From Dictyostelium discoideum (lineage: Eukaryota), in NCBI GenBank assembly GCA_000004695.1, contig CM000154.2, positions 800,001-864,000 on the forward strand: 64,000 nucleotides of DNA, read 5' to 3'. The notes beneath the pieces are model-generated. The model saw only the letters and a program-made list of their open reading frames with translations. It did no database searches and was not told the DNA's origin. Shown here in pieces: positions 3,720 to 5,540 of the stretch (position 1 is its first letter; every line of letters begins with the position of its first letter). The position numbers were made by a program, and so were the translations under genes.

Positions 3720-4967
3720 CTATTTATAAATTAATAACAAACCACCTCTTTTGTCTGTTGAGATATCTTTAAAACTGAAAGAATTTCCAGATAAATAATC
3801 TTTGATTTTATTTGGTAAACGTGCAGAAGGAGTTAAAGAATGATGACCAGTACCAACGATAACGGTTAAAGGTAAACGATCCAAGTGATCTTCTAAAATC
3901 TCTAAAGCCTCAGAGACATGAAGACCATGAAAATCCAAAACGTTATTATTGACTGGATCATAATCTTTATTTCTAGTGTTGAAAATGATATCTCTTGCTT
4001 TTCTATTGTATTCCTTCATTAGTGCATCATGTTGTTGAGCCTCCAATGCATATTCTCTAGAGGTAACTGCTGAACCAAATGCTCTAGCGGCTTGATTAAA
4101 TAATCTATTTCTTTCTCTTGCATGTAAAATTGCGCTCTCTCTATGCTGTTTATATAATAATGACACTTCAACACCAGTTTCAACCCATTCTTTTTTATAA
4201 GAACCAATACCAAAAGATGGACAATTTTTAGATGAACTTGATGATGATGACTGATCATTTGTTGGTTGTATAGCAGCTGGTTTTTTAGGTTCACCATATT
4301 TTTTAACTAAACAATTATAACAATCTTCATATATTTGATTATTATAAATAAATTCTCTATTTACATCATTCTCTAAAACATGAGAAAATAGTGTTTTCAA
4401 ATTTTCAAGTTGTACAAAAGAAGAAACACCAATTTGATAGGTTGTTCTTTTAATTTTTGGTTTTTGTTTTAATGTTGGTAAAGATGATAAACTTGGGAAA
4501 TCTTCATTACCATCATCATCACCACCACCACTACCACCACTATTGTTTTTTTTAATATTTAATTCTTCAACTACAACTATAGAGTGTGTATTTTGTGTTG
4601 GTTTTGATGTTGTTGAAGTAGTAGTATTTGTTGCTGTTGTTGTTTTTGTTGTTGTTGTTGTCGTCGTTGTTGTTGTTGATGTTGCTGCTATTGCTGTTGT
4701 TGTTGTATAATTATTTTTTGTTGTGGAATTTTGTTGTGATTGCTGCGGGGGTTGTTTATTTTTTTTTCTTTTTCCCGGTTGTTTTTTAAGTTGAACTGGA
4801 GGTGGTTTACTTATTGATCCAAGCTCTGGAAAATCTTCTTTCTCTTTACTATTATTAAAAGTATTATTATCGTTATTATTATTATTGGTTATATTATTCT
4901 TATTTTTATTATTATTATTATTATTATTATTTTTGTTACTACCATTTTTATGTTGACCATTAATTGA

Positions 4968-5030
<63 letters not shown>

Positions 5031-5540
5031 GTTATTATTATTATTATTTTTAGAATTTAATTCATCTAATAAATTTAAAGTATCATCAAATTGATGAGAA
5101 TAATTACAAGTTGGATTAAAACAATTACTAGTTAACCAATGTTTACAAATGATTGTACCTTTTGAATGACGATAAGGGCAATTCTTAACTTGACAACCAT
5201 ATAAAGTATATTTACAAACGTTTGGATGTGGTAATGTATTTACATGTTGATATTTACAATCTTTAACTAAACAAATCCCTTGAAGATCATATACACATAT
5301 ACTATTTTTTGATTCATTATTGTTATTATTATTATTATTATTATCATCTTCATCCTCTTCATCAAAGTAATCGTCATTATATTCACTCTCTAATTTCTCC
5401 ATAATATAAAATGGATTTAATAAATCATAATGAAACTTTTGAAGTAGTAAATGAATAGTCTCCTCTTTTACATTTGGAAACATCTCTTTTATTATATTAA
5501 GTGGTTGTTGTTGTTGTTGTTCATTTGTTGTTTGAACCAT
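3720..5540 (-). CDS. Single-exon 606-aa protein with four domains: an N-terminal CUE-like motif, three CCCH-type zinc fingers, DUF1771 and a C-terminal Smr domain. It is Cue2/N4BP2/NONU-1-like.
   Basis: The N-terminal MFP...LL motif (EMFPNVKEETIHLLLQKFHYDLL) is typical of CUE. Three C-x-C-x-H spaced blocks follow (CLVKDCKYQH, CQVKNCPYRH, CFNPTCNYSH). ALEAQQHDALMKEYNRKARD is DUF1771-like. DFHGLHVSEALEILEDHL...VIVGTGHHS is Smr-like. The ORF is uninterrupted. Confidence 0.75.

Follow-up and report, generated by a model that had tools for sequence, protein, structure and literature searches.

The known systems closest to the gene studied here include human N4BP2 (B3BP) and NONU-1 of Caenorhabditis elegans, in which CUE domains are followed by DUF1771 (the "N-ext" of Smr) and by a C-terminal Smr domain with a DxH motif; in NONU-1, two CUE domains precede N-ext and Smr (10.1101/674358). 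Yeast Cue2, which like these two cleaves the mRNA of stalled ribosomes, has three CUE domains and a UBA domain, and no CCCH fingers. It is not known to have a Pfam DUF1771. In the table of a review on Smr proteins, DUF1771 is flagged for yeast Ypl199c and not for Cue2 (PMC3200294). Ypl199c, which has a DUF1771-Smr core and neither CUE nor CCCH domains, lies close to Rps3 on the head of the 40S subunit in an Asc1/RACK1-dependent manner (PMC8583833), and Arabidopsis CID7, a class C1 CID protein, is organized as PAM2-CUE-DUF1771-SMR, also without CCCH fingers. The route by which the nuclease of no-go decay (NGD) gets to the collided ribosome is only partly understood: the CUE domains of Cue2 are required for one mode of NGD, and the reading of ubiquitin by CUE accounts for one of the two Cue2 cleavage modes (PMC9841427). 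Here, we analyzed a gene of Dictyostelium discoideum located in a stretch of 64,000 nucleotides (nt) of contig CM000154.2 (positions 800,001 to 864,000, hereafter the window). It encodes an uncharacterised member of this known CUE-DUF1771-Smr nuclease group, combining the modules described above with three CCCH zinc fingers and two acidic FPxL motifs.

The gene corresponds to an open reading frame (ORF) of the minus strand coding for 606 amino acids (aa) plus a stop codon. Its start ATG is found in A-rich surroundings with upstream in-frame stops, and a poly-A tract is located past the stop codon. An exhaustive HMMER search identified a protein of Dictyostelium cf. discoideum (P0014, 553 aa) sharing 90-93% identity with the window protein and collinear with it from its start Met through to the terminal LLLIYK. 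Since this collinearity extends over the whole protein, the single-exon gene model, as already proposed by a reading of the sequence only, is sound. The exact window protein was absent from the searched sequence collection, and a word-indexed search using the N-terminal 156 aa returned zero matches, the relatives discussed below coming from the exhaustive search. Along the protein, the domains are ordered as CUE, three CCCH fingers, a second CUE-like domain, DUF1771 and Smr (Table 1). Pfam for DUF1771, family profiles, and AlphaFold and Foldseek bear out the canonical CUE-DUF1771-Smr order of the sequence-only reading. Compared with N4BP2 and NONU-1, the protein shares with NONU-1 the two CUE-type domains ahead of N-ext and Smr. 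It is much smaller than both, has no P-loop polynucleotide-kinase domain, and differs by the three CCCH fingers inserted between its CUE domains and, possibly, by its two acidic FPxL motifs.

The Smr domain was firmly assigned to the eukaryotic family 2 (N4BP2/NONU-1/Cue2 type). The Smr domain of human N4BP2 (2vkc), which is its closest solved structure, was matched by phmmer with an E-value of 1.3e-7. A profile built from eight family members gave 72.4 bits (2e-19) for N4BP2, as against 22.7 and 19 bits for the two MutS2 Smr domains of solved structure, and it retrieved no stand-alone bacterial Smr chain of the YdaL/SmrB type among solved structures at E<=10. The AlphaFold model of residues 380-606 has a mean predicted local distance difference test score (pLDDT) of 77, with 85-94 for its folded parts; its Smr domain displays a beta-alpha-beta-alpha-beta-beta topology, also with pLDDT 85-94. 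The three best Foldseek matches of this model are all N4BP2 Smr (38-40% identity, target-normalised template modelling score of 0.61-0.64). A MutS2-type domain, which would have refuted the sequence-only reading, was rejected on the basis of both the profile scores and these structural matches. The Smr fold is likewise used at collided ribosomes by bacterial SmrB and MutS2, which belong to a distant subfamily, have other accessory domains and are devoid of DUF1771, CUE and CCCH.

Alignments of more than 20 homologues revealed that the motifs expected for catalysis are conserved. D536-F-H538, at the end of the first Smr strand, is the DxH motif known from NONU-1 (10.1101/674358) and is invariant in all homologues. 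The GTGHH sequence, part of the GTGHHS loop (residues 563-568), is invariant in the family, and R574, aligned by phmmer with the Arg of the N4BP2 "ARIKP" sequence, is replaced at most by Lys in all complete members. In Cue2, cleavage is abolished by the D348/H350 double mutation, and R402 contributes to it, R402K being tolerated (PMC6598757). Through the N4BP2 alignment, D536 and H538 would correspond to Cue2 D348 and H350, and R574 would be equivalent to R402. The residues needed by Cue2 for NGD cleavage thus have putative counterparts in the window protein.

DUF1771 was recognised by Pfam over its entire length (51.9 bits, E 9.8e-14, model positions 1-64 of 64) and was modeled by AlphaFold as a hairpin of two helices (residues 457-486 and 491-523, pLDDT 85-92). 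The hairpin (model m29fca9dfe677, residues 457-523) also produced weak Foldseek matches to CHMP1B and IST1, two proteins of ESCRT-III, at E>1. These matches echo a preprint in which yeast Ypl199c is named ESCRT-III-like; they concern the helical hairpin only and none is significant, so that an ESCRT-III similarity was not retained.

At the N-terminus, a profile made from seven sequences recovered almost only solved CUE domains, with E-values of 2.7e-5 for Tollip, 0.0097 for CUEDC1, 0.023 for Cue2, 0.051 for Vps9 and 0.56 for ASCC2. Pfam CUE was detected at E<=0.01 in three of eight family members (best 5.7e-5). AlphaFold proposed a three-helix bundle (residues 13-20, 26-35 and 41-53, pLDDT ~87). 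Our analysis added a second, CUE-like domain overlooked by the sequence-only reading. It stands directly upstream of DUF1771 and forms a helical bundle (AlphaFold, pLDDT 84-89), with L381, F385, L411 and G416 invariant in the family. The profile of this region matched 2dae (KIAA0733) at 1.2e-4, while the CUE domain of Cue2 was reached at E=1 only. We take 2dae to be the CUE domain of TAB2. The sequence LFSHV occupies the place where MFP is expected in this second domain, and a CUE variant in which the invariant Pro is likewise replaced, by Ser, has been described in plant CID5.

Three copies of a Cys3His arrangement, satisfying the ligand pattern C-x(4-15)-C-x(4-6)-C-x3-H, lie between the first CUE domain and DUF1771, as the sequence-only reading had it. 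The middle spacing of four residues in all three is unusual, which probably explains the weak Pfam scores of the single sequence. At the family level, zf-CCCH_2 matched eight of eight members (best 8.9e-8) and the classical zf-CCCH model six of eight, and E-values from 1e-7 to 5e-9 were obtained for orthologues on several CCCH models. Finger 2, whose ligand columns are invariant across the family, was matched by phmmer to the fingers of CPSF4, CPSF30 and Yth1 (4.6e-4 for CPSF4/CPSF30), and a Nab2-type model is the best match for finger 3. Finger 1 is an extra dictyostelid finger, encountered in Dictyostelium, Polysphondylium, Synstelium and Heterostelium and absent in the relatives with two fingers.

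The disordered low-complexity linker contains two acidic FPxL motifs, in the contexts EKED-FPEL-GS (core at residues 237-240) and GNED-FPSL-SS (core at residues 348-351). After each motif, a Lys/Arg patch comes within 10-20 residues, a similar patch being present in most family members; these patches may contact rRNA or serve as nuclear localisation signals. The second motif has a positional equivalent in two relatives (P0016 and P0030). In 15 non-redundant members, the pattern [DE][FY]PxL was observed 13 times against 0.23 expected from composition-preserving shuffles (~50-fold), with 10 of the 15 proteins carrying it (nominal P ~7e-16, a statistic uncorrected for shared ancestry). Because the surrounding linkers are otherwise unalignable, this conservation argues for selection on the motif. 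We also noted an acidic [FY]PxL in P0016, P0017, P0022, P0030, P0039, P0041, P0007, P0012, P0013 and an ORF of contig L001 (3497-4945). The motif, usually together with a Lys/Arg patch, recurs in DUF1771-Smr proteins of Amoebozoa and Fungi, within their disordered linkers. LOGO #C8, an 11-residue motif described in plant CID C proteins, might be the same FPxL motif.

Using cryo-electron microscopy and mutagenesis, Huso, Niu et al. (Nature 2025) showed that ZAK (FPPLIK) and the C-terminus of SERBP1 interact with RACK1 through FPxL, and LARP4 shares the motif (PMC12823453). On collided ribosomes, two FPxL motifs occupy two neighbouring RACK1s, ZAK engaging two on the disome, and further factors of quality control might, as its authors propose, use the same RACK1 site (PMC12823453). 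RNF10 was added to these clients by a 2026 preprint. In all four clients the FPxL core lies in a disordered region, as in the window protein, where the motif is present in two copies; the likeness to the known motif, whose Phe and Leu (F417/L420 in ZAK, F404/L407 in SERBP1) enter between blades 2 and 3 of RACK1, comes from sequence comparison. The C-terminal end of human SERBP1, ...DVDDPEAFPALA, contains DDPEAFPALA and shares with the window motifs an acidic run, FPxL and a small residue, and the fungal DEEFPALA is nearly identical to it. Smr nucleases are not among the FPxL clients reported in the searchable literature, in which we found no paper joining FPxL, RACK1 and Smr nucleases, and neither of the two FPxL papers mentions them. 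We propose, as a new and testable hypothesis, that an Smr nuclease could dock on RACK1 through FPxL.

The architecture is not unique to the window. The layout CUE, two or three CCCH fingers, FPxL, CUE-like domain, DUF1771 and Smr was found in the dictyostelids Polysphondylium violaceum, Synstelium polycarpum and Heterostelium album, in the Mucoromycota Calcarisporiella thermophila and Radiomyces spectabilis, there without a clear second CUE-like region, and in several environmental sequences, including contig L004. Three fingers are present in Dictyostelium, Polysphondylium and Synstelium, and two in the non-dictyostelid members. Contig L004 (JGI metagenome 3300030741) holds the closest non-dictyostelid homologue. 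Its CCCH/FPxL and CUE-like/DUF1771/Smr parts share one frame and have a lone in-frame TAA (556-558) between them; a sequencing error, a reassigned stop codon or an intron that keeps the frame could account for this codon. Relatives are labelled "uncharacterized", "hypothetical" or "CCCH-type zinc finger-containing protein" in public records. The sequence-only reading had considered the combination of CCCH fingers with Smr as outside the textbook arrangement. This holds against the exemplars from model organisms; on the other hand, Glover et al. had listed, among NONU-1 homologues, fusions to CCCH, PWI, 2H, UIM, UBL and RING domains (10.1101/674358), so that the combination was already catalogued, though uncharacterised, and the orthologues from dictyostelids and Mucoromycota show that it is shared.

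The homologues from Dikarya (P0003-P0013 and the L001 ORF), like Ypl199c, have the DUF1771-Smr core, with 30-42% identity, and differ from the window protein by the absence of CUE and CCCH domains. These Dikarya proteins have in common with it an acidic motif, EEFPAL, and possess in addition a PAM2 motif. A PAM2-like motif (e.g. LNPSASEFRP or LNPMAKAFVP) is present at the N-terminus of P0021 (aa 3-12), P0039 (aa 8-17), P0007 (aa 11-20) and the L001 ORF (SGLDVSAPEFVPSF), linking the family to translated, polyadenylated mRNA through poly(A)-binding protein (PABP). A regular-expression search for LNxxAxEFxP gave no match in any of the Dictyostelium (the window protein included), Polysphondylium and Synstelium proteins. 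A PAM2 motif was therefore rejected for the window protein, which differs in this respect from CID7 and from P0021 and P0039. The PAM2-like motif and the third CCCH finger may represent alternative links to poly(A).

Taken together, these results favour a cytoplasmic, ribosome-associated endoribonuclease of the group formed by N4BP2, NONU-1, Cue2, Ypl199c and CID7, predicted to act in no-go or non-stop decay by cutting mRNA on ribosomes that have stalled or collided, and to be recruited in several ways. We give this reading a probability of roughly 55%; it agrees with the candidate NGD endonuclease of the sequence-only reading, which is the best-supported interpretation, and its basis is homology. 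The N-terminal CUE domain, possibly with the degenerate second one, would recognise ubiquitin on 40S proteins of collided ribosomes, while the two acidic FPxL motifs of the linker would bind RACK1 on the 40S head. The two copies could engage both RACK1s meeting at the disome interface, with the adjacent Lys/Arg patches contacting rRNA. The three CCCH fingers would provide a grip on single-stranded mRNA, which the Smr domain, assisted by the DUF1771 hairpin, would reach and cut by means of the constellation of DxH, GTGHH and Arg. The binding events, the nuclease activity and the pathway are all predictions of this kind.

A more specific version of this scheme can be put forward as a tentative idea, for which we see a smaller chance. 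The tandem FPxL motifs and their basic patches might act as RACK1 motifs that read the paired RACK1s at the disome interface, thus building into the nuclease a collision sensor that either needs no ubiquitin or works together with it. Such a sensor would compete with factors of the SERBP1/ZAK type for their RACK1 site, and the CCCH fingers, of Nab2/CPSF30 type, would also recognise A-rich mRNA, replacing the PAM2/PABP link of relatives or working alongside it.

Several points weigh against a ribosome-associated endoribonuclease. In a preprint on yeast Ypl199c, a specific nuclease activity was not reproduced and the protein was located at the plasma membrane, and MutS2 of Bacillus subtilis, whose Smr domain acts on collided ribosomes, leaves the mRNA uncut (PMC10897456). 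No functional study of the window protein, or of any CCCH-bearing member, was found in the literature. In the single-sequence Pfam scan, only DUF1771 passed its gathering cut-off (28.7 bits), whereas CUE (aa 15-39, 19.0 bits, E 1.1e-3, cut-off 21.1), Smr (aa 535-586, 18.9 bits, cut-off 25.7), zf-CCCH_2 (aa 131-149, 18.9 bits, cut-off 25.8) and zf-C3H1 (aa 81-100, 16.1 bits, cut-off 20.9) stayed below theirs; the CUE and CCCH assignments of the sequence-only reading are consequently supported at the family and profile level, and not by the gathering threshold for the single sequence. An NCBIfam scan of the protein gave low-complexity noise only (RNase E and DnaX at 14 bits). The N-terminus was confidently modeled in one of five AlphaFold models, and Foldseek found nothing significant with it, returning only CCCH proteins or the Tollip CUE at E>0.3. 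The "MFP..LL" motif reported from the sequence is exact in its MFP part, while the alignment to Tollip places I-M-E at the di-leucine position of helix 3, and the "LL" pairs seen earlier probably belong to helix 2 and to the beginning of helix 3. For this reason, the fold of the first CUE domain is firm but its ubiquitin binding is putative, as is that of the second domain, which has no MFP Pro. FPxL, with its four residues, is missing from one clade of the family, and its enrichment statistic takes no account of relatedness. Lastly, the KRKK-type patches could be nuclear localisation signals.

Other explanations have to be considered. The CCCH fingers could select A-rich, AU-rich or poly(A) mRNAs for degradation by Smr independently of the ribosome, the CUE domain serving ubiquitin-dependent regulation of the protein itself. 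The Nab2-type and CPSF30-type models that best match the fingers, the PAM2-like motifs of relatives pointing to poly(A) and PABP, and the extremely AT-rich genome would all suit such a transcript-targeted RNase. However, all characterised eukaryotic proteins combining CUE and Smr work at ribosomes and the conserved FPxL resembles a ribosome-docking peptide. Moreover, the Dikarya relatives keep DUF1771-Smr, FPxL and PAM2 after losing every finger, so that the fingers are an accessory rather than the core targeting device. We regard this explanation as unlikely.

Distinctly unlikely, in our opinion, is a non-cleaving sensor or adaptor of collisions, in which Smr would only bind the ribosome while other factors are recruited or the ribosomes are split. 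It has a precedent in MutS2 of B. subtilis, whose SMR domain brings it to collisions without mRNA cleavage (PMC10897456), and is in line with the failure of the preprint to demonstrate a specific nuclease activity for Ypl199c. Against it stand DxH and GTGHH, invariant from Amoebozoa to Fungi, and the Arg/Lys kept over the same range, a deep conservation that is the pattern expected of an active site; Pfam also detected no ATPase or other effector domain in the protein.

The [FY]PxL motif could alternatively be a late-domain-like ligand of Bro1, ALIX or HD-PTP, with an ESCRT-III-like DUF1771 and a CUE domain binding ubiquitinated cargo, making the protein part of the ESCRT/endosome system. In this respect, FPxL of UBAP1 binds HD-PTP and resembles the viral YPxL (PMC5145805), a copy of the motif reads YPEL in one relative, an endosomal protein (Tollip) gives the best CUE match, CHMP1B and IST1 are among the weak Foldseek matches (E>1), and the preprint on Ypl199c ("Nbr9") describes Snf7-like helices and a membrane localization. 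The ESCRT-III likeness is nevertheless that of a generic helical hairpin with non-significant scores, the acidic flank and the small residue after the motif are close to the RACK1 peptide of SERBP1, and CCCH fingers and PAM2 fit RNA rather than membranes, making this explanation very unlikely. A nuclear role in nicking DNA or in its repair and recombination, in line with the initial proposal for N4BP2/B3BP and with MutS2, could invoke the first description of Smr domains as DNA-nicking (PMC3200294) and the KRKK-type patches as nuclear localisation signals, yet it is highly improbable for an Smr far from the MutS2 type, accompanied by RNA-binding CCCH modules, in a family linked to PAM2/PABP and to FPxL/RACK1-type motifs and with the functional evidence on eukaryotic CUE-Smr proteins now ribosomal.

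Table 1. Features of the CUE-DUF1771-Smr gene, with positions in the encoded protein and in the window.
Feature	Residues	Position in the window	Strand	Evidence
Coding sequence, single exon		3720..5540	-	ORF list, flanks, collinear orthologue P0014
CUE domain 1	13-53 (MFP at 20-22)	5382..5504	-	Pfam, family profile, AlphaFold
CCCH finger 1, C-x7-C-x4-C-x3-H	82-99	5244..5297	-	Regular expression; zf-C3H1 16.1 bits
CCCH finger 2, C-x6-C-x4-C-x3-H	109-125	5166..5216	-	Regular expression, family alignment, phmmer
CCCH finger 3, C-x7-C-x4-C-x3-H	132-149	5094..5147	-	Regular expression; zf-CCCH_2 18.9 bits
Acidic FPxL motif 1, EDFPEL (candidate RACK1-interacting motif)	235-240	4821..4838	-	Regular expression, flanks
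Basic patch 1, KKQPGKRKKNK	252-262	4755..4787	-	Read from sequence
Acidic FPxL motif 2, EDFPSL	346-351	4488..4505	-	Regular expression; conserved in P0014
Basic patch 2, KQKPKIKR	358-365	4446..4469	-	Read from sequence
CUE-like domain 2, degenerate	~373-416	4293..4424	-	Family profile, conservation, AlphaFold
DUF1771 ("N-ext" of Smr), long two-helix hairpin	463-524	3969..4154	-	Pfam and AlphaFold
Smr domain, N4BP2/family 2 type	532-606	3723..3947	-	phmmer, profile, Foldseek
DxH catalytic motif, D536-F-H538	536-538	3927..3935	-	Unchanged in all homologues
Loop G563-T-G-H-H-S568 and R574	563-568, 574	3819..3854	-	Alignments

The genes surrounding the Smr gene are unrelated to it. Upstream, an MFS transporter is encoded at 6278-7453 on the minus strand (Pfam MFS_1, 2.5e-33, model positions 68-347 only), and the ORF at 7609-8319 (-) probably supplies its N-terminal exon across an intron of ~155 nt. 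Downstream, 59-664 and 878-2971 (+) contain a RhoGAP fragment: the large ORF opens with only the C-terminal half of the domain (model positions 86-147), pointing to a RhoGAP gene that is split by an intron and has long tracts of poly-Gln and poly-Asn. A long (AAAT)n/(TAAA)n microsatellite (3120-3310) occupies part of the AT-rich intergenic DNA on the downstream side of the Smr gene. An ORF of 920 aa at 9663-12425 (-) has no Pfam match. The window has a GC content of ~25-30% in coding and 12-17% in intergenic regions and is rich in long poly-Asn and poly-Thr runs, as is typical of dictyostelids; no tRNA or Rfam feature was detected in it.

Our analysis thus adds to the sequence-only reading a firm Smr subfamily, a second CUE-like domain and conserved acidic FPxL motifs, along with the hypothesis of RACK1 docking. 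One small protein of this family would gather up to five recruitment devices, namely CUE, CCCH, FPxL, the basic patch and, in some relatives, PAM2. Dictyostelium is genetically tractable, and its AT-rich genome, coding for poly-Asn and poly-Lys, should be prone to stalling. If FPxL does not bind RACK1, the gene would still be a routine orthologue of a known surveillance nuclease. If it does, an enzyme that cleaves mRNA would join ZAK, SERBP1, LARP4 and RNF10 among the clients of the RACK1 site, and the dependence of cleavage on RACK1 would have a direct physical reason.

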